Part shown: in pieces, positions 1,451 through 48,130 of the stretch
Position numbering within the stretch: the first letter of the stretch is position 1
Layout: each line of letters begins with the position of its first letter
Position numbers and translations under genes: made by a program
The notes under the pieces: generated by a model
What the model was told of the DNA's origin: nothing
Seen by the model: the letters and a program-made list of their open reading frames with translations, nothing else
The model's database searches: none
NCBI GenBank assembly: GCA_045046875.1
Contig: JASFYY010000134.1
Span: 1 to 53,787 of the forward strand
Length of the DNA stretch: 53,787 bases
Source of the DNA: Verrucomicrobiota bacterium
Lineage (GTDB): Bacteria > Verrucomicrobiota > Verrucomicrobiia > Verrucomicrobiales > DEV007
Reading direction: 5' to 3'

Positions 1451-1628
1451 ATGAGCGGTGAGAATTTTTCAGGAATTTTCTAAATAGTCAGGTATAAGAA
1501 TATGGCTGATTGTCATTGGTGGTTAACCGTTGAATTTAACTGTTATTAAACTAGGTTTGCTAATTCCTGTCTTTCTTGCCTCGGTGCGAAAGGCATTTTT
1601 ATTTATATATCAAAGTTCTTTCTCTCTA

Positions 1629-4600: not shown

Positions 4601-7600
4601 TACTTCACTGACGCTTGGGGGGGATCTGACTCTAACCGGTTTGAATACGGTCTTTAATTATGCGCGGATTGGTAATGGTGATTTCAGCGGAAATGATAGT
4701 GGCGATGTGATGATCCGCGCAGAAGGGGGCGTCACTCTTAATAAAGCTTCGATCGGAAACCGCGTCGGTTCCGCCAAAACTTATATCGGTGTGGTGGGCG
4801 ATCTGAATGCAGATGCTACGAGTGTATTTCGCAGCGGGCCTTCGGGTGCAGGTGGCGAGCTGAGGCTGTATGTCGGTGGTAACGATAACGTCGATGCCTC
4901 AAGCCGGCTCAATGGAGTCGCCCATGGTGGCACGGCCTTTCCAAATAACCAGGGAGATTACGCTTTTGGCGACGGCCCTTATGTGGCGGGTTTTTCCTAT
5001 TACTCACTAGCTGCTCTTTACAACTACACGGTGGATACTCTGGCTGAGGCGACCGCTATTCAGACGGCTCTCAACGGTGGTAGTGATGTGACCCTTACCT
5101 ACAATCTCAATCAGGCGAATTTTGGCGCGGAGTATGACTGGGACGGTGGCACTCAGTTCATTCGCTTTGATTCGGATCTGTTTTATGATTCGAGTAATAC
5201 GCTTAACCTGTTGGCAACGGGGGACGCGCTGTTCAACGCCAGTGTGCAGAACCGCAACGCGACCGGTGGGGATATCAATATCGTGGCGGGCTGGGATGGA
5301 ATCACTGCTTACAATACGGCGGCCTTCGTGGCAGAAGATGTGAACAGCACGACGGTGTTTGGTGGTAGCATGGGCACGGTGAACATTGGTGACGGTTCGC
5401 AGACATCAGCAGTGGTAGTGGGCAGTCGTTCGGGGAATAGCAATGTTTTTGGCTATGATGTCAGTTTGCAGGGTGGCAATGCGGGGGTTGTACGCTTTGC
5501 GCAGTTGGGTTTCCAGGTGAGCAATCAAGGAGCATCTTATGTGGTAGATGGTGATATCGTGGTGCATGCGCTCAACGATGTGAGGGCGACGGGTGGGAGT
5601 GGGGGAACTTACAACTACGTCCAAATTGGTCATGTGGGGGCGGATCGAGGTTTTATCAATTCCACCGTCGAAGCGACGGCTAGCTCGGGGATCGAATTGT
5701 CGGTCGGGAATAACGTGAGTATTGAGAGTGGTGATGGTGTTTATGCTTATGCGCAGCTGGGCCAAGGGGGGTACTATGCCGTTGGTGACCACAGTGGAAC
5801 GACGACGATCACGCAGGCCAACGATGTGAGTATTGCAAGTGGTGATGGATTACATGCCTACGCGCAGCTGGGTCAGGGGGGGCTTATTGCCTTTGGTAAC
5901 TTCAGCGGAGACATCTCGCTGACGTTGGATGGAGACCTCACTATTGCTGGGCAAAATACCTCGAGACGCTACGCTCTGATCGGCAATGGAAATGGCCCGC
6001 AAACCTTTGACGATGACACGGGAAGAAGTGTCAGTGGTAATGTAACGGTGTATGTCGATGGGAATACGACGGTGGATAACGGCTGGTTGGGTAATCTTCT
6101 CGATGGAGAGGGTGTGTCCAACAGCGGGAGCATGATGCTTGAGGCTGGAGGGAATATCACTCTGGATAGGCTTCTCAATCTGGGCGGCTACAACTCGGCG
6201 GATGTCTATAGCTACATAGCGAGAGGTGACGTGAACTTCAACGCTAGCGTTCAGAATCGCAATGATACCGGAGGCGATATCAACATCGTGGCGGGTTGGG
6301 ATGGCACGACGCCGTATAACACGGCGGGCTTTGTGGCGGAGGATGTGACTTCGACGACAGTGTTTGGAGTCGGCATGGGTAGCGTGAATATCGGTGACGG
6401 CGCACAGGCAGCAGGAGTGGCGGTGGGAAGTCGCTCGGGGAATACCAATGTGTTTGGCTATGATGTGATCTTGCAGGGTGGAAATAGTGGGGATGGAAAC
6501 TTCGCGCAGTTGGGCTTCCAGGTGACGGATGGGATGACGCAGAATGGGGCAGATCTGGATATGGCGAATGTGGGTGGAGCGAATGTGGTGGTCAATGGAG
6601 GGATCATCGTGCATGCGCTCAACGATGTGAGGGCGACGGGTGGGAATGGAGCAAATTTTAACTACGTGCAGATAGGCCATGTAGGGGTGGATCAAGGTGC
6701 TTCCAATTCCACAATCGAAGCGAGTGCCAGCTCGGTGATCGAATTGTCGGTTGGGAATAACATGAGTTTTGAGGCTGGTGGTGGAAATTTTTCCTACGCG
6801 CAACTGGGTCAAGGGGGGTATAATACCGCTGGCGCCTTCAGCGGTACGACGACGATCACGCGGGTCAATGACATCAGCTTTGCGGGTGGGAATGGCGGTG
6901 GCCTTGTCGCCTACGCGCAGTTAGGCCAGGGGGGGTATAGAGCCAGTGGCAATTTCACTGGCACGACGACGATCACGAGGGCGGCCGACATCAGCTTCAT
7001 GGGTGGGAACGGAAATTTCGCCTACGCGCAGTTGGGCCAGGGTGGTGATGGAGCCATTGGCGCTAAGAGTGGGGATATAAGCGTGAAGCACACGGGTAAT
7101 CTTACGCTAAATGGGAATGGGTGGCCGGGTGGAATAGGCCACGGAGGAAGCTCGGGTGATGTAGAGGGCGACGTGATGATTCAAACGGGCGGCAATGCGA
7201 GTCTGGTCGGTGCATTTATCGGACATTCACCCGGTAGTGGGGATACTTACACATCGGGCAATACATTCATTGGGGTGGTGGGTGATCTCATCGCGGATGC
7301 GGGCAGTCGGTTCAATTCGGCACCGAACAACGGATCTGGCGACGGTGAGTTGCGCTTTTATGTGGGCGGCAGCGACAATGTGAATACTGGCACCCAGCTC
7401 AACGGAACACCCCATGGGGGCACGCTTTTCCCTAATGATCAGGGAGACTTTGTTTTCGGAAATGGAGGCTATGCTCTGCCAGGGGCTTCGAACCCGACAC
7501 CCGGCAACTTCAATTACTACAGAATCGAGCAGGGCATCTACAATTATGCCGTAGATACACTGGCCGAAGCGACCGCTATTCAGACAGATCTCAACAATGG

Positions 7601-9950: not shown

Positions 9951-10054
9951 TTGTTAATGGTTAGTTATCAATTTGCCATTCACATTAACAAAAATTTATC
10001 ATTAACAATTTACCATTTATAATTATTGCGATCCTTTTTGTCCTATCCTGCCCG

Positions 10055-11800
10055 TTGGCTTGGAGTCAGGATATTATGCGTATTGTGCCGAAGGTGGTCA
10101 AACGAGCTGATGGCGAAACGACGGTGATGGTGCCGGAGCTGCCTGCAGCTGGGGGGGATTCCAGTGTCGAGGCAGTCGGGAAGATTTCAGGTATTGTGCT
10201 GTGGGGGTCGATGGATGAGGTGCAGGCGGATTCGCCGCCGAAGATTAGGGAAGTCAAAGTTGGTAGTGAAGATCTCGAGGTTCCCGATGGAGTGTTGGAA
10301 GCTTTGCAAGCTTACCTGGATGGCCCTCTCAGTGTGGCGGCGATTGAAAACATCACTCGTGATGTGGTGCTGGCTTACCGCAAGGCGGATTTGCCAGTGG
10401 TTGATGTGGGTTTTCCGGAACAGGATGTTAGTAGCGGAGTGCTGCAATTAGTGATTGTGGTGGGTCGGGTTGGTGAGATTCGGGTGACGGGTGCTGAATA
10501 TTTTGATCCCGAGGATTATCTTAAGTATATTCGTCTCTCTCCAGGTGATTTGATTTATCAATCAACTTTGCTGCAGGACTTACGTTTTCTTAGTCGCAAT
10601 CCTTTTCGTAGTCTCAACTTGCTTTACACTCCAGGTAAGGAGTTTGGTGATGCGGATATGATCCTAGAGGTGGACGAGCAGCGACCGCTGACGGCTTATG
10701 TGGGTTATGATAATACTGGGAATGAGTTCATCGGGGTGGATCGCCTGAACTTCGGATTTGAGTGGGGCAATGTCTTTGGGCTCGGACATATTGTTAGTTA
10801 TCAATACACTACGTCAGTGGATTTTGAGGGTTTGCAGGGGCATTCGCTGTACTACCGCGCACCGATTGCGGCGACTCGTGGTGAGCTTCGTTTTCTGGGT
10901 GGTTATGTGAATACCGATGTTTCTATCCAGGCGGCGGGTCAGACTTTTAACAGCGGTGGTGAGAGTGCGCAGTTGAGCGGGGTTTATGTGCAGCCTCTGC
11001 CTACCTGGTGGGGTATCGAGCAGGACTTACATGTGGGATTTGATTTTAAGACAACGGACAATAATCTGGAGTTTGGCGGCCTGCGGGTGAGTGATACCTA
11101 CACCCAGATTTATCAATTCACGGTGGCGCAGATGGGACGCAAGCGTAGTCGTTTTGGCCTGACTCAGTTTTACAATCGCCTAGTGGTATCGCCGGGTAAC
11201 TTTTCTGGTCAGAATACTGACGAAGTGTTCAATGATTTGCGCCTCGGTGCCACGGCTTCGTATGTTTACTGGAATGGTAGTCTCACGCAGATGATTTCTT
11301 TGCCGAAGGACTTCCAGTTGCATTTGATGTTGGAAGGCCAGGCGAGCAGTAATAATCTTTTACCAAGTGAAAGCCTGATTCTCGGAGGTCAGGGATCGGT
11401 GCGTGGATTTGAGCAAAATATCACCCGGGCGGATTATGGAGCGGTGGCGAATATCGAACTTTACACGCCGGCGTTTTCTCCATTGTCAGGCTTGGGATTA
11501 GGAGGAAAGGATGCGGTGTATGAAGGAGAAGGTGGGAAACGCACCTTGATAGAGCCCGGTCGGAAGATGGAAGAGGGTTTGCGTTTTTTAGCTTTCCTTG
11601 ATCTGGGCTGGGGGGGAAGCGTGGATCGTCTTCCGCGCGAGCCATCATCACGTGAGTTGGCAGGGGCAGGAGCTGGCTTGAATTATTTTCTTAATAGCAA
11701 TCTGGTGCTGCGCGCAGCTTATGGCTGGCAGGTGTGGGAGGAAGGCTTCCTTGATGCAGAGGATGGGCGCTCACACATATCGGTGACGATGCGGTGGTAG
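10055..11800 (+). CDS. TpsB transporter (ShlB/FhaC/HecB family); true start probably upstream
   Basis: POTRA-like segment (VGFPEQDVSSGVLQLVIVVGRVG), YDNTG barrel start, loop-6 motif SVRGF, C-terminal Trp, directly downstream of TpsA. Confidence 0.92.
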   Translation: MAWSQDIMRIVPKVVKRADGETTVMVPELPAAGGDSSVEAVGKISGIVLWGSMDEVQADSPPKIREVKVGSEDLEVPDGVLEALQAYLDGPLSVAAIENITRDVVLAYRKADLPVVDVGFPEQDVSSGVLQLVIVVGRVGEIRVTGAEYFDPEDYLKYIRLSPGDLIYQSTLLQDLRFLSRNPFRSLNLLYTPGKEFGDADMILEVDEQRPLTAYVGYDNTGNEFIGVDRLNFGFEWGNVFGLGHIVSYQYTTSVDFEGLQGHSLYYRAPIAATRGELRFLGGYVNTDVSIQAAGQTFNSGGESAQLSGVYVQPLPTWWGIEQDLHVGFDFKTTDNNLEFGGLRVSDTYTQIYQFTVAQMGRKRSRFGLTQFYNRLVVSPGNFSGQNTDEVFNDLRLGATASYVYWNGSLTQMISLPKDFQLHLMLEGQASSNNLLPSESLILGGQGSVRGFEQNITRADYGAVANIELYTPAFSPLSGLGLGGKDAVYEGEGGKRTLIEPGRKMEEGLRFLAFLDLGWGGSVDRLPREPSSRELAGAGAGLNYFLNSNLVLRAAYGWQVWEEGFLDAEDGRSHISVTMRW

Positions 11801-35599: not shown

Positions 35600-36694
35600 T
35601 CAGCTATCTTCGTCCACGGTTTCGTCGCGTTGATAAATGGGCAACTGACGATAGGGCACGGTGAAGGATAATACCATCATGGTGGTGCCATAGGTGGCAC
35701 CGTTACGGGAGTTGGACCAGGAACCGTTGGCTTGTTGTTTGGGGATGTAATGAGGATACATCCAGGCCGCGTAGGTTTCCCAGTATTTTCCACCCAACTG
35801 GAACATCGCCTGAGCGTTGTAATAATTGGCGTAAAACTCGTGGGCATTGCCAACGATGCGTTGGTGAATTTTGAGGATGTAGTCACCGGCACGGTAGGTG
35901 GATTCAGTGCCATGGAAACCTGATAGCTCAAGACAGAGCAGGCCGCAACCGGAGAGGGTCTCCGAATGCCCCCAGGGATCGGTGTAACCAAATCGTCCCT
36001 CCTTGGGATCGTGATTGCGCAGCACATAGTCAACCGAGGATTTGATCGCGGCATCGGGGATCGGAGCCCCGTTCAGTTTGGCCGACCTCAAGGCCATCAG
36101 CGCCCAACCGCTGCAGGATAAGTCCGAATCACGGGAGTCCGGTTTGTAGCGCCAGCCACCCTGATGTTTTTCGGTTTTTGGCACCGCCTGGGCAGCCAGG
36201 ATAAGGCGCATGGCTTTGCCGAGAACCTGGTCAAGTTCATCCTGGGTTTGCGGATCCACCATGCCCGAACATTCCGATAAAAACAATGAGGCGATATTGT
36301 GGGCATACATCACTCCGTGACCCGAGTCTCCCATGTCAAGTAGGCCGTTGCTGCGCTGGCTGTTCAAAATGTAGTGAATGCAACGACTGAGCGTGGTTGA
36401 ATATTTCCCCTGTCCGGGAGTATGCCCCTTCGAAAGAAAGGCCATGCCCGCCAAGGCGACAATGCCGGTAGAACGGCCATAGGCATCGGGAAAGGTTCCG
36501 TCAGGATTTTGGCTGGCAGCGAGAAATTCGAGCGCGCGTTCAACCGAGCGGCCGACTTGCGTCTGGTATTTTTGAAACACCGTGTTGGAGAGGGCGCGCC
36601 CCTGGGCATGAGAGCTCAAGGGCTGCATCAAACAAAACACCGTCAACAAGAGTGCGGATATGCGTTTTTTAATGCGGTTGGCCTTGTTTCTCAT
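35600..36694 (-). CDS. Prenyltransferase/squalene-oxidase (QW) repeat protein
   Basis: Signal peptide; LAASQNPDGTF, SQRSNG, GGWRY..DLSCSGWALMALRSA, QQANGSW, LPIYQR C-terminus. Confidence 0.85.
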   Translation of the reverse strand: MRNKANRIKKRISALLLTVFCLMQPLSSHAQGRALSNTVFQKYQTQVGRSVERALEFLAASQNPDGTFPDAYGRSTGIVALAGMAFLSKGHTPGQGKYSTTLSRCIHYILNSQRSNGLLDMGDSGHGVMYAHNIASLFLSECSGMVDPQTQDELDQVLGKAMRLILAAQAVPKTEKHQGGWRYKPDSRDSDLSCSGWALMALRSAKLNGAPIPDAAIKSSVDYVLRNHDPKEGRFGYTDPWGHSETLSGCGLLCLELSGFHGTESTYRAGDYILKIHQRIVGNAHEFYANYYNAQAMFQLGGKYWETYAAWMYPHYIPKQQANGSWSNSRNGATYGTTMMVLSFTVPYRQLPIYQRDETVDEDS

Positions 36695-37054: not shown

Positions 37055-37318
37055 TTAACCTTTAAGTTGACCGGATTTCTTCTCGGTATCGGCTCTGAAG
37101 TTGGCGGCTTTGTCTTTTTTGCAGCCGGAGGGCAGTTCGACACAATCCTGACAGGTGTTGAGCTCGATGCAATTGGGGTCACCTGCGAGGCGGCGGCGTT
37201 TGGCTTCCTGGGACATGGCGTAGGATCCGATGCCGCCAATGATAACGGTGCGCATGCCGATGGCGAAAAACTGACGCCGTGCGGGAGTGGTGGCTTTGGG
37301 GGATGAAGGTTGGCTCAT
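37055..37318 (-). CDS. Small Tat-like membrane-anchored protein with a 4-Cys motif (putative Fe-S/metal binding)
   Basis: Strong RBS AAGGAG; ARRQFF then a hydrophobic helix; C-x5-C-x2-C-x6-C; 22 nt downstream of the preceding gene. Confidence 0.75.
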   Translation of the reverse strand: MSQPSSPKATTPARRQFFAIGMRTVIIGGIGSYAMSQEAKRRRLAGDPNCIELNTCQDCVELPSGCKKDKAANFRADTEKKSGQLKG

Positions 37319-37340
37319 GGGAATCTCCTTTTAATAATGC

Positions 37341-38450
37341 TCAGGCACTGAGCTCGTTAACGTTAGTGCGGTTGCTGTTGTCATCAACTTCAGCCGTATC
37401 TTGTAATTTTATTTTGGGGGTGAAGGGGCGCACCACCATGCGGAAAGGATCGAGCACCAGAACACGTCCGGATTCTTCGATCGCGACATCAAAACCTGCG
37501 CCGACACTGCAATCGCCGCAGGCGCGTTTGGCGAGCTCTTTGTCATCAATCAAGGTGTTCGGACCGGCAACGGCGCCTTTGAATTCGCCATCGGCACTGT
37601 AGATGTTCACCCGGGCGAGCCCTTTTTCACTGGTGATGAAATCGCCGTTGGGCATCATGGTGAAATAACAAGGGTTGCAGCAACCGCAGAAGCGATCAAT
37701 TTTCATGCCGGGGCCACCCCATGATGATTTAAACTCTCCATTCAGGGAGTAAGTTTCGACACGCAGGCGACCGGGGTTGACCACTCGTAGTTGGTCGTCG
37801 CTGGCGACGGTCAAATCGAAGTAGGGGCTGGGAACAGCAAAACCAGGATTGTTTTTATTTTCGTCTTTTTCACCGAACTGGTTTTTCACTTCGCCGGTCT
37901 TGCGGTCACAGATCAGCACCTTTCGGTTGCCTCCGTCGGCCAGATAGATGGCGTCGTCACTAACGGCAATGGATGTCAGATAAGTGCGGCGGGGTAATTT
38001 GGGTGACTGCCATTTTTCCTTGCCTTCAAAATCATAAACGGTGAACTCCTTGGCAGTGCCTACGATGAGCTCGTTCTCTTTGGTGACCAGCATGCAGTGG
38101 GGAGATCCTTTGATCGGGAACTCAGCTTCTACTTCGCCTTTGGCAGCGAAGATTTTCACAGATTTGTCTCCGGCCACAGCGTATCGTCCCCCGGGCATGG
38201 CTTCGATGCGTTTGACTCGATCGAAGCCGGTGGAGATGTGCTCCTCGGGATCGTAGAGCAGCAGCTCGGGATCGGTATTTTCAAATTTACTGATGTCGTA
38301 AACAAAACGACTGTCGAGTGCGGTGGGCACCGGTTTCCGGATTTGACTGGGGCTTTGGAACTTGCGCGCTACCCATCCGGCTGCACCTCCCATTCCGAGC
38401 AATACAGCCCCCATCAATCCACGTCTTCCTATGTCGGATTTTTCTCCCAT
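37341..38450 (-). CDS. NHL/beta-propeller protein with Tat-like signal and FCGCCNPC motif
   Basis: GRRGLMG plus hydrophobic stretch; NHL-like blades (IYLADGGNRKV, NPGRLRVETY, GDFITSEKG); FCGCCNPC and CGDC. ATG 38450. Confidence 0.78.
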   Translation of the reverse strand: MGEKSDIGRRGLMGAVLLGMGGAAGWVARKFQSPSQIRKPVPTALDSRFVYDISKFENTDPELLLYDPEEHISTGFDRVKRIEAMPGGRYAVAGDKSVKIFAAKGEVEAEFPIKGSPHCMLVTKENELIVGTAKEFTVYDFEGKEKWQSPKLPRRTYLTSIAVSDDAIYLADGGNRKVLICDRKTGEVKNQFGEKDENKNNPGFAVPSPYFDLTVASDDQLRVVNPGRLRVETYSLNGEFKSSWGGPGMKIDRFCGCCNPCYFTMMPNGDFITSEKGLARVNIYSADGEFKGAVAGPNTLIDDKELAKRACGDCSVGAGFDVAIEESGRVLVLDPFRMVVRPFTPKIKLQDTAEVDDNSNRTNVNELSA

Positions 38451-38682
38451 AATATCAGCCAGCAATAGCAGTTAAAGGTAATGTTCACTCAAAAGCCGAC
38501 TTTGTCACACAAAAAAAGATACGCAATTACGGCATGCAAAAGCGGTATTCTTGTGTATATTATTTACGCCTGCTGTTCTGGTAAGAAATCTATAAGAGAT
38601 CTTATCGGACTCTGTCAATGTGCAGGGAAGGCAGCGGGCTGTAGATTATAAATTTTATTGATACGCTTCCCCTGTAAACCCC

Positions 38683-40149
38683 ATGGATCGTTTCGGACAA
38701 CAACAATTGGTTTTAGCCATCGTAGGCATGATGTCACTGCTGGCTGGAGGCTTTCTTTTTCTGCTGTTTAAAAGCCCGGCGGCGGTGCCGGTTCCCAAAA
38801 GGGTGACGGATTTTGCCGCTGAACGTGCAGCGGGCACTTTGCCGGAAGGTATGGGAGCTGCCAAAGAGGCCAAGGTGGTCGAGAAGGTGGATCTCACGGG
38901 GGTATTCACCAAGTTTGATGGCAAGGCGGGCAAAACCGATACCAACTGGCCCAATTTCCGCGGAGCGGATTACAGCAATATCGTTGATAGCAAAGTGCCG
39001 CTGGCGACCAGTTGGCCAGAGGGCGGTCCGCCTAAACTTTGGGAGATTGATCTGGGCGAGGGTTATGCCGGAGCGGCGGTGTGGGAGGGGCTTTTTTACA
39101 TCAGTGATTACGATGATGAAAAAAAAGGGGACGTCTTGCGTTGTTTTTCTTTTGAGGATGGCAAGGAGGTCTGGAGTCATTTTTATAAAAACCCGATTAA
39201 AGCCAATCACGGTTATTCACGAACAGTGCCGGCGCTCACTGCGGATTACATTGTTTCGATGGGGCCGGCTTGTCATGTGGTGTGTCTGAGTCGCGAAACC
39301 GGAGAGTTCCGTTGGGGGCTTGATTTGAAGGCTGATTACAAAACCACGGTGCCGCTGTGGTACACCGGGCAGTGTCCTTTGATCGACGGCACGACGGCGA
39401 TCATTTCACCAGGCGGCAAGGCGTTGATGATGGGGGTGGATCTTGAAACGGGGGATGTGTTGTGGGAGACGCCCAATCCGAACGGCTGGAAGATGTCACA
39501 TTCATCGATCATGCCGATGACGATGATGGGCAAAAAAATGTATGTTTACATGGCGATCGGCGGGGTGATCGGGGTCTCGGCTGAAGACGGGGATCGTGGC
39601 ACTTTGTTGTGGGAAACCAATAAATGGACCCATTCGGTCACTTCGCCTTCTCCGGTGAAGGTTGATGATAATCGGATTTTCCTCACGGTGGGTTACGGTG
39701 GTGGTAGCATGATGCTGGGTTTGAAAAAAGAGGGGGACAAGTTTGTAGCCGAGCCGATTTATGAATTGGAGAAAACCGTGTTCGCTTGTGAGCAGCAGAC
39801 GCCGATTTTTTCCCAGGAGCATTTGTATGCGATCCTGCCCAAGGATGCGGCGGCGAGTCGTGGTCAATTTGTCTGCATGAATCCGGACGGCAAGGTGGTG
39901 TGGAGCAGTGGCAAAACCAATCGTTTTGGTCTGGGGCCGTTTTTGCTGGCCAACGACCTATTTTATATACTGGATGACCATGGTGAGTTAACAATGATCA
40001 AAAAATCGGTGACGGGATATGAACAACTGGCGCATGCAGAGGTCATAGAACATGGCCATGACGCCTGGGGGCCGATGGTCATGATTGATGGTAAACTAAT
40101 TTTGAGGGACTCGAAGAGGATGATATGCCTCGATGTTTCTAAGCAATAA
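38683..40149 (+). CDS. Membrane-anchored PQQ-like (BamB-type) beta-propeller protein
   Basis: N-terminal TM helix; NWPNFRG, WPEGGPPKLW, repeated TG...W Trp-docking motifs, AWGPM..DGKLILRD. Confidence 0.85.
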   Translation: MDRFGQQQLVLAIVGMMSLLAGGFLFLLFKSPAAVPVPKRVTDFAAERAAGTLPEGMGAAKEAKVVEKVDLTGVFTKFDGKAGKTDTNWPNFRGADYSNIVDSKVPLATSWPEGGPPKLWEIDLGEGYAGAAVWEGLFYISDYDDEKKGDVLRCFSFEDGKEVWSHFYKNPIKANHGYSRTVPALTADYIVSMGPACHVVCLSRETGEFRWGLDLKADYKTTVPLWYTGQCPLIDGTTAIISPGGKALMMGVDLETGDVLWETPNPNGWKMSHSSIMPMTMMGKKMYVYMAIGGVIGVSAEDGDRGTLLWETNKWTHSVTSPSPVKVDDNRIFLTVGYGGGSMMLGLKKEGDKFVAEPIYELEKTVFACEQQTPIFSQEHLYAILPKDAAASRGQFVCMNPDGKVVWSSGKTNRFGLGPFLLANDLFYILDDHGELTMIKKSVTGYEQLAHAEVIEHGHDAWGPMVMIDGKLILRDSKRMICLDVSKQ

Positions 40150-40167
40150 TACGAACATTCAAGAGCG

Positions 40168-40797
40168 ATGGCTGAGTTAGTAAAAGAACCTGAGAAAATC
40201 ACCCGCTTCACCTTTCTGCGGAACGGGATGCGGGCATTCGTAGGATTGACCCTGGGGGTGATCGGCGGCTGGACGGCTTTTGGCGCACGCAAAAAAAATA
40301 CGGTGTGGCAGATCGATCCGATGAAGTGCGTGCAGTGCGAGCACTGTTCGACTTCCTGTGTGGTATCGCCGTCGGCGGTGAAGTGTGTGCAGTCCTATTC
40401 GATCTGTGGGTATTGCCAGTTGTGTTTTGGTTATTTCCAACCGGAAGCTCCCGAGCTGACTTCGGCGGCGGAGAACCAGCTCTGTCCCACAGATGCGATT
40501 GAGCGTGTTTTTGTTGAGGACCCTTATTGGGAATACAATATCCTTGAAGATCGTTGCATCGGTTGTGCCAAGTGCATCCAGCCATGTGAAATGTTCGGCA
40601 ACGCTTCTTTTTATCTGCAAGTGCGGCATGATGTGTGTGTGAACTGTAACAACTGTTCGATCGCGATGCAGTGTCCGTCCGATGCCTGGGTGCGCTTGCC
40701 GGCTGACCAGCCCTACATACTGAAACACAAACAGGACTACCCTTTGGAACCACAGATCGAATTGTCGCTTACGGCCAATTTACCTAAAAGAAAATGA
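40168..40797 (+). CDS. Polyferredoxin, NapG/MauM-like (up to four [4Fe-4S]) with N-terminal anchor
   Basis: 17 Cys, including CVQCEHCSTSC, CGYCQLC, LCP, CIGCAKCIQPC and CVNCNNC..QCP; N-terminal TRFTFLR plus helix. Confidence 0.85.
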   Translation: MAELVKEPEKITRFTFLRNGMRAFVGLTLGVIGGWTAFGARKKNTVWQIDPMKCVQCEHCSTSCVVSPSAVKCVQSYSICGYCQLCFGYFQPEAPELTSAAENQLCPTDAIERVFVEDPYWEYNILEDRCIGCAKCIQPCEMFGNASFYLQVRHDVCVNCNNCSIAMQCPSDAWVRLPADQPYILKHKQDYPLEPQIELSLTANLPKRK

Positions 40798-42233
40798 GGC
40801 CCCTGAGTTTAATTTCCAAGCACCTCGCGGTGCTTTCCATCTTATTTGTGGTATTGGCGGGTGCGCTGGCCGAGCCAGCTGGGGATGTGATGAATTTCCC
40901 GCAACCGGAGTTCACCAGTGGTTATGATTTTCCGCTGACCACGGTTCCGGAGCCGACCAGTGATCTGCGCGAGTGGATCGATGTGGGGGTGCTGTTCATT
41001 GTTTTGAGTTTGGCATCCTGGTTGGCGGTGAAACGTCGTTCACGTCGTGGTTTGTTCTGGGTGATGGTTTTTTCCCTGGGTTACTTTGGGTTTTACAAAC
41101 AAGGCTGTGTGTGTCCGATCGGGTCGATTCAGAATGTGGCGTTGAGTTTGTTTGATACCAACTACGCGGTGCCGATGACGGTGACGATCTTTTTTGTTAT
41201 GCCGCTGGTATTTGCGCTGCTTTTTGGGCGGGTGTTTTGTTCGTCGGTGTGCGCACTCGGGGCGATTCAGGATCTAGTGGTGATCAAACCGATCCAGTTG
41301 CCTAAAAAGCTGACCATGGCGCTGAGCATGATTCCTTATGTGTATCTGGGGATGGCGATTTTGTTTGCGGCGACCAAAACGGGTTTCATTATTTGCCGTT
41401 ACGATCCTTTTATTGGTTTTTTCCGGCTTAATGGCAATGCGCCGTATCTGTATCTCGGTGCGGGCTTTCTGATCGCGGGCATGTTCATCGCCCGTCCCTA
41501 TTGCCGCTTTTTTTGTCCCTACGGCGTGCTGCTTGGTTTCATGTCACGTTTTGCGTGGAAACATCTGACCATCACGCCGTCGAAGTGCATCGACTGTCGT
41601 TTGTGCGAGGTGTCCTGCCCTTTTGATTATATCGAAAAACCCAATACCGGTTTGGCACGCGAAAATCGCCAGACGGGGGTGAAACGACTGGGGCTGCTAT
41701 TTGCGATGATGCCGGTGATGATCATTCTCGGCGGTTGGATTGGGCACCGGATGTCGATTCCTTTGTCGAGTTATAACAATACGGTGTTTTTGGCGGAGCA
41801 GGTATTGGCTGAGAAGATCAATCCGGATCTGGAAGAGACTTTGGAGACTAAAACCTATCGTTCGATGGGAACTTCGGAGAGCGAGTTGATGGTCAACGCG
41901 ATCAAGATTCGTAAATTCATGAACATGGGAGGCTGGATTCTCGGTGGTTTCCTAGGTTTGGTTTTCAGTATCAAATTGATCGGCCTGTCGGTATCGCGTG
42001 AGCAGAAGGACTACGAAGTGATCAAACCGAGTTGTTTCAGTTGTGGCCGATGTTGTTCTTATTGTCCGAGTGATGACATGCACCGGTTGAATTTTATTCC
42101 CGGTAGCCAACCTTATTTAGAGGCGATGTCGTTGCGGGATCCGGTGTATAAACCGCCCGAAGAAGCTGAAGGTGCATCGGAAGGTGAAGAAACATCGGCC
42201 AAAGGCGGGGAGAAAAAACCCGCTGCTGTTTAA
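40794..42233 (+). CDS. NapH/MauN/YccM-like integral membrane 4Fe-4S protein
   Basis: Multiple TM helices; GCVCPIG, GRVFCSSVC, RPYCRFFCPYG, CIDCRLCEVSCP, CFSCGRCCSYCP; ATGA overlap with the upstream gene. Confidence 0.85.
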   Translation: MRPLSLISKHLAVLSILFVVLAGALAEPAGDVMNFPQPEFTSGYDFPLTTVPEPTSDLREWIDVGVLFIVLSLASWLAVKRRSRRGLFWVMVFSLGYFGFYKQGCVCPIGSIQNVALSLFDTNYAVPMTVTIFFVMPLVFALLFGRVFCSSVCALGAIQDLVVIKPIQLPKKLTMALSMIPYVYLGMAILFAATKTGFIICRYDPFIGFFRLNGNAPYLYLGAGFLIAGMFIARPYCRFFCPYGVLLGFMSRFAWKHLTITPSKCIDCRLCEVSCPFDYIEKPNTGLARENRQTGVKRLGLLFAMMPVMIILGGWIGHRMSIPLSSYNNTVFLAEQVLAEKINPDLEETLETKTYRSMGTSESELMVNAIKIRKFMNMGGWILGGFLGLVFSIKLIGLSVSREQKDYEVIKPSCFSCGRCCSYCPSDDMHRLNFIPGSQPYLEAMSLRDPVYKPPEEAEGASEGEETSAKGGEKKPAAV

Positions 42234-42274
42234 GGGCGGGCATTTAAGTGAATTTTATTTGAAATCAAAAAGCG

Positions 42275-44059
42275 ATGAGAGTTGTTGAATATGAAAAAAG
42301 TACCCAGTCCCTGCCGTATCAGCTCATTAAAGGAGCAGCGATGGTTTCGGGGGTGTTTGCCTTGGTGGTCTGCGCTTTGCTGATTGCCAATAACCTCAGC
42401 TTGAAAAAAACCGATCCGATTCACTCTCCCGCTTTACAGCGATTGGTTGAAGAGCTCAAAACCAATCCCAATGACGAAGCTTTGCGGGAGGAAATCCGTG
42501 AACTCGATCAGATCTCGCGACGGGCATTTTTTACCAGTCAGCATTTTAATCGCATGGCGATTTATATGTTGGTGGGTGGGCTGTTGGTGATGGTGGTTGC
42601 TTTCAAATCGCTTGAAGCTTACACCGCACTGCCGCCTTTCCCTGATTCGCAAGACCCCAAGGATGACTTGGTGGAAAAGGCGACCTGGGCCAGAAAGTCG
42701 ATCACGTCGGTGGGTTTGGTATTGGTGGGATTTGCGCTGATGATAGCCCTGCCGTGGGAGAGCACGCTCGATTTGCCGGAAGCGGAGGTGGCAGCGAGCG
42801 GCGAAGATGAAGAGGGTGCGACAACGGCGGGGGCTGCGACCCCTACCTCCAAGGTGGAGACGGTGGTCAAACCTGCCGCTGACGCCAAACCGGTTGCCAG
42901 TGCGGAAGAACGACTGAAGAACTGGCCGGGATTTCTTGGGCCTCGGGCTGGCTTGGCTGATGCCAAGGCTTTGCCCACCACCTGGGATGGAGAAAAAGGG
43001 GAGGGCATTCGTTGGAAAACGGAGATTCCGCTGCCGGGGTTTAATTCGCCGATTATTTGGGAGGATAAAATTTTCCTCTCAGGCGCTGATGAAAAAAATC
43101 GCGAGGTTTATTGTGTCGATCGCGAGAGTGGAAAGATCCTGTGGACAAAAAAAGTGGAGAAGATTCCGGGTTCACCTTCTTTTGAAGATTCTCCTGAAGT
43201 GAACGATGACACAGGGTACGCCGCAGCGACGATGGCGACCGATGGGGTGCGGGTGTTTGCGATTTTCTCGAATGGGGATTTGGTGGCCTTTGATTTTGAA
43301 GGCAGTCAAGTGTGGGCTAAAAACCTGGGAGTGCCTGAGAATGCTTACGGGTATTCTTCTTCGCTGGTAGTGTATGAGAGCTTGTTGTTGATACAATATG
43401 ACCGGGATGAGGACAGTTTTTTCACCGGACTTGATGTGGCGACCGGGCAAAAACGCTGGAGAACACCGCGCGACTTCGGGGCGTCGTGGTCAACGCCGCT
43501 GGTATTTAATTCCGGTGAGCGGGATGAGGTGGTTTTGGTGGCTGACCCGATGGTGGTTTCTTATGATCCTAAGAATGGAAAGGAGTTGTGGCGAGTGGAA
43601 TGCCTGGAGGGTGGCGAAATCGCACCGATGGCAGTTTATATGGACGGCTTGCTCTATGTCGCGGCAGACTACGTCAAGGTGGCGGCGATCGATGTCAAAA
43701 AACACGAAGTGGTGTGGGAGACGTCGGATATGATTCCCGGTATTGCCACGCCTTTGGTAATGGGCGATTATTACATTGGAGGTCTGGGGGACGGCGGTAT
43801 TATTTGTTATAATGCCAAGAGTGGTGAGGAAGTTTGGATGGCGGATACCGATGACGGTTTTTACGCGTCGCCGATTTTGGCGGACGGCAAAGTCTATTTG
43901 GCGGATCGCACCGGGGTGATGCACATTTTTGAACCGGGGGCGGAATACAAAGCCCTCAGCACCCCTGCTTTGGGTGAAGTGATCGTCAGCACGCCTGCGG
44001 CGATGGGCGATACCCTTTATGTGCGCGGGATGAAAAACCTCTACCGGATCGGACCATGA
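42275..44059 (+). CDS. PQQ-like beta-propeller protein with three N-terminal TM helices
   Basis: Three hydrophobic segments, an acidic/Ala linker, then NWPGFLG, GFNSPIIW, YASPILADGKVY, STPA..LYVRG. Confidence 0.85.
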   Translation: MRVVEYEKSTQSLPYQLIKGAAMVSGVFALVVCALLIANNLSLKKTDPIHSPALQRLVEELKTNPNDEALREEIRELDQISRRAFFTSQHFNRMAIYMLVGGLLVMVVAFKSLEAYTALPPFPDSQDPKDDLVEKATWARKSITSVGLVLVGFALMIALPWESTLDLPEAEVAASGEDEEGATTAGAATPTSKVETVVKPAADAKPVASAEERLKNWPGFLGPRAGLADAKALPTTWDGEKGEGIRWKTEIPLPGFNSPIIWEDKIFLSGADEKNREVYCVDRESGKILWTKKVEKIPGSPSFEDSPEVNDDTGYAAATMATDGVRVFAIFSNGDLVAFDFEGSQVWAKNLGVPENAYGYSSSLVVYESLLLIQYDRDEDSFFTGLDVATGQKRWRTPRDFGASWSTPLVFNSGERDEVVLVADPMVVSYDPKNGKELWRVECLEGGEIAPMAVYMDGLLYVAADYVKVAAIDVKKHEVVWETSDMIPGIATPLVMGDYYIGGLGDGGIICYNAKSGEEVWMADTDDGFYASPILADGKVYLADRTGVMHIFEPGAEYKALSTPALGEVIVSTPAAMGDTLYVRGMKNLYRIGP

Positions 44060-46509
44060 GCGAAGAAGCGACTTTGACAGAATCGAAAGAAGCAAAGGCT
44101 CTGGCGGAGGACAAAGACTGCCCGGGAACTTGTGACGACAAGAAAAACCCTGAGATCGACATCTCCGCAGTGGAGGAGATGGTGGGGCGTATTGGCAAGG
44201 AAGCCAAACATTTGATCCCCTTGTTGCAGGCGATTCAAAAGAAGTGGAACTGGTTGCCACCCAAGGCACTGGAGCGCATTGCTGAGATTACCGAGATCAC
44301 GCCTGATTCCATCACCGGAGTATCGACTTTTTATTCCCAGTTCCGCCATCACCCGGTGGGCAAACACATTGTCAAAACTTGCATTGGCACAGCTTGTCAC
44401 GTCAGCGGGGCTTCGGTGTTGGATGAGACCTTCCGCAGTCACTTGAAGGTGGGGAAAGGGGAACACACCAGCCCGGATGATACATTTACGGTTGAAGAGG
44501 TGGCCTGTCTGGGTTGCTGTATGCTGGCACCGGTGGTGCAGGTGGATGATACGATTTACGGGGAAGTTGAGGCTTTTAATATTCCCAACCTGCTTGAGGA
44601 CTTTCTTGCTACCGAGGATGCTAGATCGGGTGGTGGTGATGAAGGTGAGGAAGATCGCAAGAATGTGACCGGCGAAGTGCGCATTTGCATTTGCTCCAGT
44701 TGCACCGCGGGCGGCGCGTTCAAGGTTTATCAAGAGTTGCTGAATGTGGTCAAGACCATGGACCTGCCGGTCAAGATTAAGAAGGTGGGTTGTCGTGGTG
44801 CGTCTTTTGAAACGCCTTTGATTGAGGTTTCGGTTTATAATCAGGGACGGCATCGTTACGGCCTGGTCAAGGTCACTGATGTGCGCGGTTTGTTATTGAA
44901 ACATTTCCAACCCGCCAACTGGTTGCGGCGCACCACCTCGACGATGTTCGGTTTGTTGGAGAATTTGCTCACTGATGAGGATTGGGATCCACCAACCCGC
45001 TTTTCCAAGGATGTGCGGGCCAAAGTGGACATGCGTTTCGAGGGGCCGCAGCAACGTTGCGTCACCGAGCATTCGGGTGTGCTCGATCCTAAGAGCATTG
45101 ATGATTACCTTGCGTATGACGGCTTCAAGGCGATGCAGACTTGTCTCGAAGGAGGCGATCCGGATGGCATCATTCAGGAAATGCTCGACAGTGGATTGCG
45201 TGGACGTGGTGGCGCGGGTTTCCCAACCGGGATGAAGTGGCGTTTCACTCGTATCGAGGAAAACGAAACCAAATACATTATTTGTAACGGCGACGAAGGT
45301 GATCCCGGGGCGTTCATGGATCGCATGATTCTGGAGTCTTTCCCGTTCCGTGTGATTGAAGGCATGGTCATTGCGGCTTATGTGATTGGAGCGGAGCAAG
45401 GAGTGCTTTATATTCGCGCGGAGTATCCGCTGGCGACCGAACGTATTTTGAATGCCATCGCCCAGTGCGAGGAACGAGGTTACCTCGGTGATAATATTCT
45501 CGGCACGGGGATGAAGCTCAAGCTGGAAGTGGTTGAAGGCGCAGGGGCGTTTGTTTGTGGTGAAGAAACCGCTCTGATGTCAGCGATTGAGGGTGGACGC
45601 GGCATGCCAAGATTTCGTCCACCTTTTCCTGCGCAATCTGGATTGTGGGGCAAACCGACGCTGATCAATAATGTTGAAACTTTCGCTTCTATTTCGTGGA
45701 TCATTCGTAATGGCGCGGAGAAGTTTGCTGCGATTGGAACGGAAAAAAGCAAGGGCAGCAAAACTTTTGCCCTGGCGGGCAAAGTGGTTCGTGGAGGCAT
45801 GATCGAAGTGCCGATGGGTATGACCCTGCGGGAGATTGTCGAGGATATTGGTGGCGGCATTCCCAATGGGCGCAAGCTCAAAGCGGTGCTGATGGGTGGT
45901 CCGTCGGGTGGTTGTGTGCCGGAGCATTTGTGCGACACACCGGTGGATTACGAAGAGATCAGCAAAGTGGGAGCGATCATGGGGTCGGGGGGGATGGTGG
46001 TGCTCGATGACACGGATTGCATGGTGGACATTGCCAATTATTTCATGCGTTTTTTGCAGGATGAATCCTGTGGCAAATGCACCCACTGTCGAATCGGCAC
46101 CAAACGCATGGGAGAAATCCTAGAGCGTCTTTGTGCGGGTAAAGGCCGTAAAGGGGATCTGGAAAAACTAGAGACACTGGCCGGCATCACCAAGGAAGGC
46201 AGTCTTTGTGGGCTGGGGGTGACCGCTCCCAATCCGGTTTTATCCTGCATGAAGTATTTCCGCCAGGAGTTCGAGGATCATATTGCCGGCACCTGCACGG
46301 CGAAAAAATGTGTGCCGTTGATTCGTTATGATATCGACGACACCTGTATCGGTTGCACCCGTTGTGCGCAATTTTGCCCGACGGATGCCATTCCGATGAA
46401 CCCTTACCGCCATCATGTGATCCAGGATCCGATGTGCACCCGTTGTGATATTTGCCTACAGGTCTGTCCGGTGGACGCTATTCATATTGTTGATTTGGAG
46501 AAAGTATAA
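44056..46509 (+). CDS. Fused NuoE/HydC + thioredoxin-like Fe-S + NuoF/HydB NAD(H)-binding flavoprotein (BfuBC-like)
   Basis: TFYSQF, CIGTAC..CLGCC (2Fe-2S), GLRGRGGAGFPTG, CNGDEGDPGAFMDR, GEETAL, ESCGKCTHC..SLC, HIAGTCTAKKC, two C-terminal CxxCxxCxxxCP. Confidence 0.92.
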   Translation: MSEEATLTESKEAKALAEDKDCPGTCDDKKNPEIDISAVEEMVGRIGKEAKHLIPLLQAIQKKWNWLPPKALERIAEITEITPDSITGVSTFYSQFRHHPVGKHIVKTCIGTACHVSGASVLDETFRSHLKVGKGEHTSPDDTFTVEEVACLGCCMLAPVVQVDDTIYGEVEAFNIPNLLEDFLATEDARSGGGDEGEEDRKNVTGEVRICICSSCTAGGAFKVYQELLNVVKTMDLPVKIKKVGCRGASFETPLIEVSVYNQGRHRYGLVKVTDVRGLLLKHFQPANWLRRTTSTMFGLLENLLTDEDWDPPTRFSKDVRAKVDMRFEGPQQRCVTEHSGVLDPKSIDDYLAYDGFKAMQTCLEGGDPDGIIQEMLDSGLRGRGGAGFPTGMKWRFTRIEENETKYIICNGDEGDPGAFMDRMILESFPFRVIEGMVIAAYVIGAEQGVLYIRAEYPLATERILNAIAQCEERGYLGDNILGTGMKLKLEVVEGAGAFVCGEETALMSAIEGGRGMPRFRPPFPAQSGLWGKPTLINNVETFASISWIIRNGAEKFAAIGTEKSKGSKTFALAGKVVRGGMIEVPMGMTLREIVEDIGGGIPNGRKLKAVLMGGPSGGCVPEHLCDTPVDYEEISKVGAIMGSGGMVVLDDTDCMVDIANYFMRFLQDESCGKCTHCRIGTKRMGEILERLCAGKGRKGDLEKLETLAGITKEGSLCGLGVTAPNPVLSCMKYFRQEFEDHIAGTCTAKKCVPLIRYDIDDTCIGCTRCAQFCPTDAIPMNPYRHHVIQDPMCTRCDICLQVCPVDAIHIVDLEKV

Positions 46510-46516
46510 AAAAGCG

Positions 46517-48130
46517 ATGAAATTGACGATCGACAATCAGGAAATCGAGCTGGACGAAGCGACCACGATTTTTCATGCTGCCAAAGAACTTGGCATTGAG
46601 ATTCCGATCATGTGTTATCGGGAGGGCTACGACTATTTCACTTCCTGCATGATGTGCACGGTGAAGGATCAGGCGACGGGGCGCACGCATCCGGCTTGTT
46701 CTGCGCTGTGTGCCGATGGCATGGAGATCGATACTCAGTGTGATGAGATTATGGCACATCACAAATCGACGCTTGAGCTGTTGCTCAGTGAACATGTAGG
46801 TGACTGTGAAGCGCCGTGTCAGCGCTTGTGTTCGATTCACTCCGAGATCCCCAAGATGATTCGCGAGATCAAGGATGATCAATTTGAGGATGCGATTGCC
46901 ACGGTGCGCGAGGACATGGCGATCCCGTCGATTCTGGAACGATTTTGCACCGCGCCTTGTGAAAAAGGTTGCCGTCGGGCGCAGTATGATGACGGGGTTT
47001 CGATCCGTCACATGACGCGCTTTATTTCCGACTGGGATCTGAAACGCGAGACGCCTTATGTGCCGCCGATGCGGGAGAGTTCGGGAAAGAAGATTGCCAT
47101 CATTGGCTCCGGGGCTACGGGCCTAGCGAGTTCGTATTACCTGGCTCGTGAAGGTCACGCTTGTGTGATTTTTGAAAAAGAAGAGCAAATCGGAGGGCGT
47201 CTGCGTTCGGAGGAGGATTATGATCAGAGCCTGATGCAGGACTGGATCATCGAGGGTGAAGTGAAGGTGCTCAAGATGATGGGAATTGAGTTTAAAACAG
47301 CGACTTTAGGTGATGGGCTTTCGTTGCAAAGTTTACAGCAGGATTACGATGCGGTGGTATTGACTTGTGGGCAAATCGGCAATGAAGCGCTCGAAGCCTT
47401 GGGGATCCCATTTGATGAGAAAAAGGGGATTAAGGTCAATCGCAAAACGGCGATGACTGAGATTGATGGGGTGTTTGCCGCCGGGAGTATCACCAAAGCT
47501 AAGATGCCGATTTTGAAAGCGGTGCAGTCGGCGAAGGATGTGGCAGCCTGTGCAAGTCAGCATGCCAATGGTGATCAGATTGACGGCATTGTGGAGATGT
47601 ACAATCACATGATGGGCCGTTTGCAGGAAGGGGAGATTGATATTTTTGTTACCGGAGCCAATCCGATTCCACGGGTCACTCCGGATAATATTGAAGTGGA
47701 TGGTTATAATAAAGCGGATGTACAACTGGAAGGGGAGCGCTGCATGCATTGTGACTGCCGTGCTTCGCATGATTGTTCACTGAGAATTTACAGTGACAAA
47801 TACGGTGCCAAACAATCGATGTTCAAGGGGGAGCAGCGGGCGAAATACGAACATGTTAACCAGAATGCCGGGGCGGTTTATGAGTCGGGTAAGTGTATCA
47901 AATGTAGCCTTTGTGTGCAGATCACCAAAGAGGAGGACGAGACCTACGGCTTCACTTTTGTCGGACGCGGTTTTGATGTGAAAGCCGGGGTGTCGTTGGA
48001 TAAAACTTTGTGGGAAGGGCTGGAGCACGTGGCGGACAAAGTAGTGGAAGCTTGTCCGACGGGTGCGTTGTCAACCAACGAGAAGTATCAACCCGATCAG
48101 GGGAAGATTGTCGGAGCGGATCATGCTTGA
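46517..48130 (+). CDS. NuoG/HydA N-terminal Fe-S protein with inserted truncated GltD/Nfn-type flavin domain (BfuA-like, no catalytic metallo-domain)
   Basis: IPIMC..SCMMC..PAC (2Fe-2S), EHVGDCEAPC, RFCTAPCEKGCRR, IIGSGATG, GVFAAGS, CMHCDC..DC, CIKCSLC, CPTGAL. ATG 46517. Confidence 0.85.
   Translation: MKLTIDNQEIELDEATTIFHAAKELGIEIPIMCYREGYDYFTSCMMCTVKDQATGRTHPACSALCADGMEIDTQCDEIMAHHKSTLELLLSEHVGDCEAPCQRLCSIHSEIPKMIREIKDDQFEDAIATVREDMAIPSILERFCTAPCEKGCRRAQYDDGVSIRHMTRFISDWDLKRETPYVPPMRESSGKKIAIIGSGATGLASSYYLAREGHACVIFEKEEQIGGRLRSEEDYDQSLMQDWIIEGEVKVLKMMGIEFKTATLGDGLSLQSLQQDYDAVVLTCGQIGNEALEALGIPFDEKKGIKVNRKTAMTEIDGVFAAGSITKAKMPILKAVQSAKDVAACASQHANGDQIDGIVEMYNHMMGRLQEGEIDIFVTGANPIPRVTPDNIEVDGYNKADVQLEGERCMHCDCRASHDCSLRIYSDKYGAKQSMFKGEQRAKYEHVNQNAGAVYESGKCIKCSLCVQITKEEDETYGFTFVGRGFDVKAGVSLDKTLWEGLEHVADKVVEACPTGALSTNEKYQPDQGKIVGADHA

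Follow-up and report, generated by a model that had tools for sequence, protein, structure and literature searches.

A conserved locus that encodes a Bfu core beside a putative membrane arm

What does a predicted electron-bifurcating flavoprotein act upon when no catalytic partner is encoded beside it? The question is raised by a locus at positions 37,055 to 48,130 of a 53,787-nucleotide stretch of DNA from a Verrucomicrobiota bacterium (GenBank assembly GCA_045046875.1, contig JASFYY010000134.1; the whole stretch is called the window here), in which a BfuCB fusion and a BfuA protein are encoded downstream of propellers, a polyferredoxin and a polytopic membrane protein. The window is contig C134 of a 5.6-Mb genome that is 94.7% complete and whose nearest named relatives are Verrucomicrobiales or Verrucomicrobiota records. 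We find that the cluster is real, widespread and apparently uncharacterised, and our best reading of its proteins is an undescribed Bfu subtype whose third substrate would be reached through a membrane arm. The cluster comprises the following genes:

37055..37318, minus strand: Tat-like mini Fe-S protein candidate, 87 aa (open reading frame; no Pfam match)
37341..38465, minus strand: NHL propeller, 374 aa (open reading frame; conserved vicinal cysteines)
38683..40149, plus strand: N-anchored BamB/YxaL-type propeller, 488 aa (PQQ_2 match, predicted fold)
40168..40797, plus strand: polyferredoxin, 209 aa (17 invariant cysteines in the alignment)
40794..42233, plus strand: NapH/NosR/RdhC-like polytopic membrane protein, 479 aa (Fer4_5, 38.8 bits)
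42275..44059, plus strand: three-helix membrane protein with a C-terminal PQQ_2 propeller, 594 aa (Pfam and hydropathy)
44056..46509, plus strand: BfuC-BfuB (HydC-HydB or NuoE-NuoF) fusion, 817 aa (Pfam, PDB matches, signatures)
46517..48130, plus strand: Nfn-type BfuA, 537 aa from the ATG at 46517 (Fer2_4, Fer4_20, Pyr_redox_2 and Fer4_Nqo3)

A sequence-only reading of this DNA had described six tightly packed plus-strand genes with a divergent pair upstream. Their gaps of 18, -4, 41, -4 and 7 nt were reproduced exactly, the minus-strand pair was confirmed at 217 nt from the first plus-strand gene, and the domain calls hold: two PQQ_2 propellers (85 and 96 bits), Fer4_5, NuoE plus NuoF plus 2x[4Fe-4S], and the four domains of BfuA. 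Two refinements concern the protein called NapG-like. It is a polyferredoxin with RnfB as its best NCBIfam match (27 bits) and no match to a NapG/MauM profile at E<=0.01, and in the window's clade its N-terminus has one arginine in place of a pair. Of the two proteins described as Tat-like, the 87-aa protein has a twin-arginine N-terminus, and the NHL protein has one in 27 of 69 homologues and a hydrophobic signal-type N-terminus in most of the others. A scan for promoters and terminators did not exceed the level of shuffled sequence (6 against 9.9, and 14 against 14.1).

The same reading had staked its case on the redox and propeller genes recurring with the NuoEF/G-like genes elsewhere, and they do so not only in Verrucomicrobiota, Bacteroidota and Planctomycetota but in several further phyla. 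A search with the polyferredoxin gave 3005 homologues at E<=1e-10, and at least 585 of the 600 pattern matches listed from GTDB genomes are relatives. By record title, the best 80 loci come from Verrucomicrobiota, Bacteroidota, Planctomycetota, KSB1, Sumerlaeota, Aminicenantes, Firestonebacteria, Spirochaetota and Neomarinimicrobiota. Four titles (L014, L024, L059 and L070; Bifidobacteriaceae, Bacteroides fragilis) seem to clash with the closest relatives, are possibly mislabelled bins, and were not counted as phyla. In this set, which is biased to close matches and was counted over loci with enough flank, the polyferredoxin is accompanied by the membrane protein in 72/72 testable loci, the three-helix propeller in 59/59, the NHL protein in 65/65, the 488-aa propeller in 53/59, BfuCB in 51/55 and BfuA in 41/47. 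All seven genes are present in 31 of 40 loci, and in 26 of 40 they share a strand, the NHL gene being part of the operon. The small Tat/Cys4 gene adjoins the NHL gene in 49 of 70 loci in a relaxed scan. Because the gene set is kept across phyla, the cluster is not due to chance.

An evenly drawn sample of 301 Verrucomicrobiota genomes held 36 with the arm (the polyferredoxin, the membrane protein and the predicted exported proteins that go with them) and one with a distant paralogue only. Across its 35 loci the membrane protein was found in 30/32, the three-helix propeller in 24/29, the NHL protein in 23/29, the 488-aa propeller in 21/27 and BfuCB in 20/27; a separate BfuA gene was present in 11/27, and seven of the misses have a long fusion. 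Of the seven loci that lack BfuCB, four belong to genomes that hold the fusion elsewhere. In the reverse direction, metagenome loci were collected by their BfuA gene; of the 27 that extend 9 kb upstream, 20 hold both the polyferredoxin and the membrane protein, and one of the seven misses is the canonical control.

A probable bifurcating core without its NADP domain

The closest PDB entry to BfuCB is NfnB from T. sibiricus (9n5u_B, 669 bits), and its top six solved relatives are the NfnB, StnB and HydB subunits of bifurcating enzymes (596-669 bits), against at most 380 bits for NuoF/Nqo1 of complex I. Its Pfam architecture comprises the FMN domain, SLBB, the B1 cluster and a C-terminal 2x[4Fe-4S] domain, together with the [2Fe-2S] site of BfuC; cluster numbers such as A1 and B5 are our own mapping from the cited papers. 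Signatures were counted by pattern in 112 complete fusions from the loci gathered at that stage. The residues used as criteria for bifurcating beta subunits (PMC7311640), namely A232/M234, F367 and GGPSG, are present in 111, 110 and all 112 of these, respectively, B1 in 112, B3/B4 in 111 and C1 in 104. Cluster ligands are invariant in 54 aligned sequences, including those of B2 (H742, C747, C752 and C655), whose His/Cys pattern recurs in 112/112 fusions and whose ligands are missing from non-bifurcating homologues (PMC9304861). At B5, in the N-terminal thioredoxin domain, C216 and C246 are invariant and the fourth ligand is Ser here (as in 21/107) and Cys in 83/107, so that the site reads as degenerate in the window; B5 carries zinc in the active NfnABC (PMC12018979). 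Judged by its residues, the core appears to have every Bfu feature tested other than the ambiguous B5 site, and it is quite probable that BfuCB bifurcates. In a minimal FastTree test (about half of 97 segments, only two outgroups), the cluster BfuB sequences form one clade with a support of 0.93. Two loci (L153 and L169, about 4300-10000) have two tandem divergent copies of the BfuCB fusion ahead of one BfuA.

BfuA departs from this conservative pattern. Its residues 2-305 align to residues 5-303 of NfnA (9bov_A) and residues 280-518 to 429-671, which shows a deletion of about 125 residues where NfnA has its NADP(H)-binding Rossmann fold; the Fdh/NuoG-like C-terminal domain is also absent. The cysteines of A1, A2, A3 and A6/A7 are retained in the window protein, and those of A4 are lost. 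The second Rossmann motif is missing from 119 of 121 whole BfuA proteins, the two that have it being the canonical control L227 and the cluster member L036, and the FAD 'GD' aspartate is retained in just 21 of 108 scored. Sizes descend from 703 aa to 520, 444-473 and 327-345 aa (the last without the FAD domain), and finally to single C-B-A polypeptides without the BfuA insert, six of which were confirmed by pattern; the cysteines of A1, A2 and A3 persist through all of the shortened forms. Since the NADP domain is lost while the Fe-S wire is kept, a third substrate would be handled outside BfuA. We infer that the conserved third substrate is something other than NADP(H) and that BfuA acts as a wire, as in type 3 Bfu enzymes, with the substrate probably reached via the NapH/NosR-like membrane protein. 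The single polypeptides (L132, L137 and L139-L142, also L136) measure 976-1040 aa, with a minimal BfuA that has no flavin insert; their loci encode a short, 210-aa NHL protein that keeps GCCNP, and are the simplest version of the system.

The sequence-only reading had reported that no H-cluster, NiFe, pterin or nuoA-D/H-N genes occur here, and a Pfam scan of the eight cluster proteins and 18 flanking open reading frames bears this out. The flanks encode sulfatases, DUF1549/1553 proteins, a prenyltransferase-repeat protein and a sodium:solute symporter, and none of the 18 is a redox catalytic subunit. A catalytic partner encoded elsewhere was considered and rejected for hydrogenases and formate dehydrogenase in this 94.7% complete genome, where PF02906 and PF00374 gave no match and neither an FeFe nor an NiFe hydrogenase was found. 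Its two remaining NuoF-type genes adjoin the formate dehydrogenase alpha subunit or sit in the nuo operon, and we counted it against a partner elsewhere that formate dehydrogenase and complex I have NuoF-type subunits of their own. Two further molybdopterin proteins are encoded on contigs C136 and C20, and four COX1-family matches mark the host as an oxygen respirer. An Rnf or Nqr subunit was not found in the genome, PF03116 giving short partial matches only; an 891-aa open frame with two partial NQR2/RnfD matches (G000:C95:65782-66405) is not a normal subunit of either complex.

The 479-aa membrane protein scores 41 bits against the NapH model (cut-off 234) and 32 against NosR (cut-off 1000). 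It has two CX3C(P/A) motifs and two [4Fe-4S] motifs that are parted by a two-helix insert, with cysteines conserved in 73-76 of 76 aligned sequences. Three extra invariant cysteines (C105, C107 and C201) would lie on the outer face by a positive-inside reading. A structure search with the membrane domain found no solved relative, only ferredoxin-motif matches, and an ESM Atlas search returned only unlabelled NHL/SGL and Fer4_5 clusters. The 17 invariant cysteines of the polyferredoxin make up four [4Fe-4S] motifs plus C73, and its Tat-like N-terminus has twin arginines in 69 of 79 homologues and a single arginine in the 10 nearest relatives, including the window clade. A search of 461 candidates for polyferredoxin fusions gave five hits (two clean, two frameshifted and one chimeric), which is weak evidence; in the fusions P0121 and P0122 the polyferredoxin stands ahead of a retained signal helix, before the membrane protein. 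Complex prediction for the membrane protein, the polyferredoxin and BfuA (residues 92-521, as partner) returned scores of 0.00 and 0.00 with controls that were not folded, which is evidence neither for nor against contact.

On the divergent side, the 87-aa protein combines a twin-arginine signal or anchor with C-x5-C-x2-C-x6-C, the spacing being 5-2-5 in 32 of 36 rows, and is a probable single Fe-S mini-protein. In the NHL protein, C262 and C263, invariant in 71/71 aligned sequences, lie in an F-x-G-C-C-N-P motif kept in 146 of 150 representatives (the four misses being giant repeat proteins), and are a candidate thiol or metal redox site; that its N-terminus swaps between Tat-type and plain hydrophobic forms argues for export. 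The predicted fold is a six-bladed propeller (AF2 pLDDT 95.9), with the TRIM2 NHL domain as top match (Z 29.6, rmsd 2.5, 255 aligned). The 488-aa propeller (AF2 pLDDT 94.6) resembles YxaL (Z 33.8, rmsd 3.0, 337 aligned), Rv3035 (Z 32.3), BamB (Z 31.5) and tetrathionate hydrolase (Z 30.5), and its conserved H176 (58/58), H273 (58/58), C231 (57/58) and R180 are a candidate ligand or metal site. Both fold searches gave generic propeller matches only, with no functional assignment. Against the PQQ-dependent dehydrogenase model TIGR03075 the score is 54 bits, with a cut-off of 480, and in size and fold the propellers are nearer BamB/YxaL than quinoprotein dehydrogenases. A pqqC search of five genomes found no match, but its controls gave none either. 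One 979-aa protein (L164:2357-5296; 1293 bits on the three-helix propeller profile) is apparently two propellers fused.

Outside the cluster, the prenyltransferase-repeat gene at 35600-36694, next to the small Tat gene, was excluded from the system, as it had no match in any fetched locus; its product is a prenyltransferase/squalene-oxidase-repeat protein with a 70% identical paralogue on contig C142. At 1530-11800, a 2806-aa open reading frame without a Pfam match is followed by a ShlB/FhaC-type transporter, a probable two-partner secretion pair.

Linkage to a glycosyltransferase, an ABC exporter and an SHC-like cassette

As a gene set the cluster holds together, but it is not a redox system on its own: it travels as a module with a GT4/ABC/propeller core and an SHC-like cassette, a linkage that is new in this analysis; our literature search turned up no paper connecting cluster and cassette. 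Four genes recur in its vicinity: those for a 369-aa propeller, a GT4 glycosyltransferase whose N-terminus bears a CGxC motif, an ABC ATPase and an FtsX-type permease. The cassette has five genes: a ferredoxin, a radical SAM protein, a DUF116-polyprenyl synthase (such fusions are recorded in PMC5898192), a prenyltransferase toroid and a divergent DxDD class II cyclase. The linked cyclase, which matched 19 loci among those then gathered, is about 580-610 aa long, keeps DxDD and scores 89 bits against an SHC cut-off of 431. One-strand superoperons unite cassette, arm and Bfu genes in three phyla (L254-255, L251-252, L249, L253, L256 and L132-L142), the order in L254-L255 being ferredoxin, radical SAM, DUF116, cyclase, propellers, NHL, polyferredoxin, membrane protein, BfuCB, BfuA, propeller, GT4 and ABC. 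In the window genome, all of the accessory genes lie on other contigs. At G000:C36:3208-5968, the cassette radical SAM gene stands between a CxC protein and a P-loop GTPase, a possible metallochaperone, which we take from its motif to be G3E/CobW-like.

Across genomes, arm, cyclase and both were found in 36, 34 and 32 of 301 Verrucomicrobiota, in 65, 45 and 45 of 101 genomes of the family of the Sunxiuqinia record (Prolixibacteraceae and similar family names are presumptive, being our reading of record titles), and in 25, 48 and 18 of 201 Planctomycetota. Arm and cyclase share a contig, no more than 14 kb apart, in at least 14 of 32, 5 of 45 and 6 of 18 double-positive genomes, the pairs being picked by eye. 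DUF116 matches, stand-alone copies included, occur in 45 of the 301 Verrucomicrobiota. GT4 is present in 63 of 65 arm-positive and 4 of 36 arm-negative genomes of the Sunxiuqinia-record family. In planctomycetes and other groups, where 80 of 91 intended genomes were scanned, it was found in 23/25 arm-positive, 29/30 cyclase-only and 1/16 double-negative planctomycetes, and, in other groups, in 5/5 arm genomes for which no cyclase match came up. GT4 is thus found with either module. We read GT4, ABC and propellers as a hub, with the cassette and the redox arm as modules around it, and the arm as favoured where oxidases are missing: heme-copper oxidase was found in 29/30 cyclase-only planctomycetes and in 9/25 arm-positive ones.

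The proposed electron path and its rivals

On the reading that we prefer, the BfuCB fusion would take electrons from NADH and reduced ferredoxin by confurcation in the cytoplasm and pass them along A1-A2-A3 of BfuA, which would serve only as a wire, into the cytoplasmic Fe-S sites of the NapH/NosR-like protein. After traversing the membrane they would arrive at a periplasmic station formed by the Tat-targeted polyferredoxin, the 87-aa Fe-S protein, the NHL propeller with its vicinal cysteines and the two anchored propellers. This station would reduce, or maintain reduced, the exported product or clients of a larger envelope pathway, to which the Cys-motif GT4, the FtsX-type ABC exporter, additional propellers and, for most lineages, the SHC-like cassette would belong. 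The parts of this chain differ in strength. That it serves the GT4/ABC/terpenoid pathway is likely, that Bfu and arm are electronically wired to each other only a little less so, and the outward direction is slightly favoured, because NapH, NosR and RdhC-type proteins serve periplasmic clients (PMC5928378) and because Bfu confurcation suits acceptors above about -400 mV (PMC9304861). The whole chain, with outward delivery to a periplasmic station, falls somewhat short of an even chance. More tentative again is the suggestion that the cluster may be the redox arm of an undescribed PVC/FCB envelope pathway for a glycosylated molecule, often linked to a cyclic isoprenoid and either a lipid or a new kind of redox cofactor. 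An FtsX-type ABC system would export it to an expanded family of cofactor-less PQQ-like propellers, and bifurcation would couple its redox state across the membrane to NADH and ferredoxin. Of the earlier proposal of an NAD(H)/ferredoxin bifurcating module on a NapGH-like conduit, the module is supported by the bifurcating signatures, the co-occurrence and a BfuA without its NADP domain, and the NapGH family scores speak against the name given to the conduit.

Several observations weigh against this path. One cluster member, L036 (11095-13206), has a BfuA with the full NADP-binding domain, whether by retention or by replacement; three of the seven genomes checked, all of one genus, have arm genes but no BfuCB fusion; and distant paralogous NHL-polyferredoxin-membrane trios (L144-L148) lack the propellers and this Bfu (in L145 the trio follows a complete HydCBA [FeFe]-hydrogenase and a second NHL protein with EF hands). 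The location of the polyferredoxin is ambiguous, given its single arginine here and the signal helix retained between the halves of rare fusions. The host respires oxygen and neither hydrogenase nor Rnf/Nqr was found in it, which leaves no evident source of reduced ferredoxin. As to the pathway, no cyclase was found in 20 of 65 arm-positive genomes of one family or in 6 of 10 hand-picked cluster genomes (present in 4), close radical SAM matches are lacking in 5 of the hand-picked genomes checked, 30 of 48 cyclase-positive planctomycetes have no arm, and a 99% complete genome of the window's order (G123) has cyclase and GT4 with neither arm nor fusion. A miss by one query in an incomplete genome does not amount to an absence, and the genomes are related, so that the profiles overstate their independence.

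Electrons might instead flow inwards, the propellers being dehydrogenases with a glycosylated or prenylated cofactor made by GT4 and the cassette, and the arm conveying their electrons inward for bifurcation to NAD+ and a ferredoxin, which may be that of the cassette. The median number of PQQ_2 matches per genome is 11 in the 65 arm-positive and 1 in the 36 arm-negative genomes of one family, the operon itself supplying up to about six; among cyclase-positive planctomycetes the arm is present in 11 of the 12 that lack a heme-copper oxidase and in 7 of the 36 that have one, as expected if it replaces a respiratory electron sink; and the cassette ferredoxin and radical SAM enzyme need low-potential electrons. 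However, inward flow requires a periplasmic donor near -400 mV, the propellers resemble BamB/YxaL more than quinoprotein dehydrogenases, and their number is the same in arm genomes with and without the cyclase (11 and 11.5), which leaves this direction unlikely. Rather less probable still is a coupling through quinone, in which the membrane protein would hold a NapH-like quinone/quinol site, Bfu would reduce menaquinone, as a non-pumping analogue of Nuo-Bfu, and the quinol would feed a NapG-like polyferredoxin, so that the halves meet only via the quinone pool. In its favour, the membrane segments of NapH have been proposed to supply NapG by oxidising quinol (PMC5928378), a quinone is among the third substrates predicted for Bfu enzymes (PMC9304861), and arm and Bfu are separable in 4 of 7 cases, but the NapH score lies far below its cut-off, the three outer-face cysteines suggest a metal or thiol relay, and genomes with complex I, the window's included, already reduce quinone from NADH.

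The single arginine of the window clade and the order within P0121 and P0122 would also suit a NapF-like polyferredoxin docked on the cytoplasmic side of the membrane protein, with Bfu and arm providing low-potential electrons to biosynthetic Fe-S enzymes at the membrane (the radical SAM protein and DUF116-prenyl synthase) and the propellers acting as export or assembly scaffolds, and cytoplasmic NapF attached via NapH is a precedent (PMC5928378). This we consider improbable, as most homologues keep both arginines, the fusions are four singletons among about 3000 homologues, two of them visibly frameshifted, and the arm persists in many genomes that have no cassette. It is least probable of all that BfuCBA is co-inherited and not wired to the arm, as a decaying Nfn transhydrogenase riding in the operon or an enzyme with a partner elsewhere. 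The progressive BfuA deletions, the 6 of 26 metagenome loci in which BfuA lies apart from the arm and the one genus without the fusion point that way, whereas all of the BfuCB cofactor ligands and A1-A3 are conserved across phyla, the cluster BfuB sequences form one clade, no hydrogenase was found here and formate dehydrogenase and Nuo have flavoproteins of their own. The fusion also follows the arm in planctomycetes, being found in 24 of 25 arm-positive genomes and in 1 of 30 that have the cyclase without the arm.

If correct, outward delivery through the arm would add a trans-membrane class of third reaction to the Bfu family, and the envelope-pathway reading would unite three orphans: the SHC-like cyclase, many PVC/FCB propellers and a Bfu without a catalytic subunit. 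The hosts are abundant polysaccharide-degrading bacteria of waters and sediments (the arm is carried by 65 of the 101 genomes sampled from a single Bacteroidota family), with cultured members among the named records in Sunxiuqinia elliptica and Gaoshiqia sediminis, and the question of the SHC-like cyclase's product, which bears on the fossil lipid record, gains a defined set of up to about 19 genes.

By size, score and distribution, the linked cyclase fits the published 'SHC-like' class II terpene cyclase clade, whose function is uncharacterised (PMC7306690, PMC12324236) and which shares its size, DxDD motif and phyla; the retrieved portions of these two papers mention no Bfu, ferredoxin or propeller link. 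For the cluster itself we found no description in the literature, subscription journals being largely beyond the search, and it does not map onto a characterised complex of the known Bfu types or of NapGH. With NapGH, MauMN, NosR and RdhC (PMC5928378) it shares a four-helix module, two CX3CP-type motifs, two [4Fe-4S] motifs and an adjacent Tat-like polyferredoxin; it differs in scores far below the family cut-offs, in ferredoxin motifs split by two helices, in having no FMN domain and, from NapGH, MauMN and NosR, in having no nitrate, N2O or amine enzyme nearby. The BfuB half resembles that of Nfn-Bfu, NfnABC and StnABC (PDB 9bov, 9n5u and 8oh5; PMC11829005, PMC12018979) at 646-669 bits, as does BfuA in its N-terminal Fe-S domain, NfnL-like clusters, FAD motif and missing A4, which T. 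sibiricus NfnA lacks too. Unlike in those enzymes, C and B are fused here, the NADP-binding and Fdh/NuoG-like domains are absent and a membrane arm is linked; BfuA thus lacks the complete NfnL-like domain with an NADP(H) Rossmann fold that defines Nfn-Bfu (type 1), and neither it nor the locus has the H-cluster, NiFe site, pterin or Nuo membrane subunits of FeFe-, NiFe-, Fdh- and Nuo-Bfu. Section 5 and the searched supplementary table rows of PMC9304861 (Schut et al. 2022) hold no type with subunits such as these. The type 3 enzymes described there (NiFe-Bfu and Nuo-Bfu) also keep A3 and have extra subunits beside bfuABC; those that the cluster adds, by contrast, comprise a NapH/NosR-like protein together with Tat Fe-S proteins and propellers.

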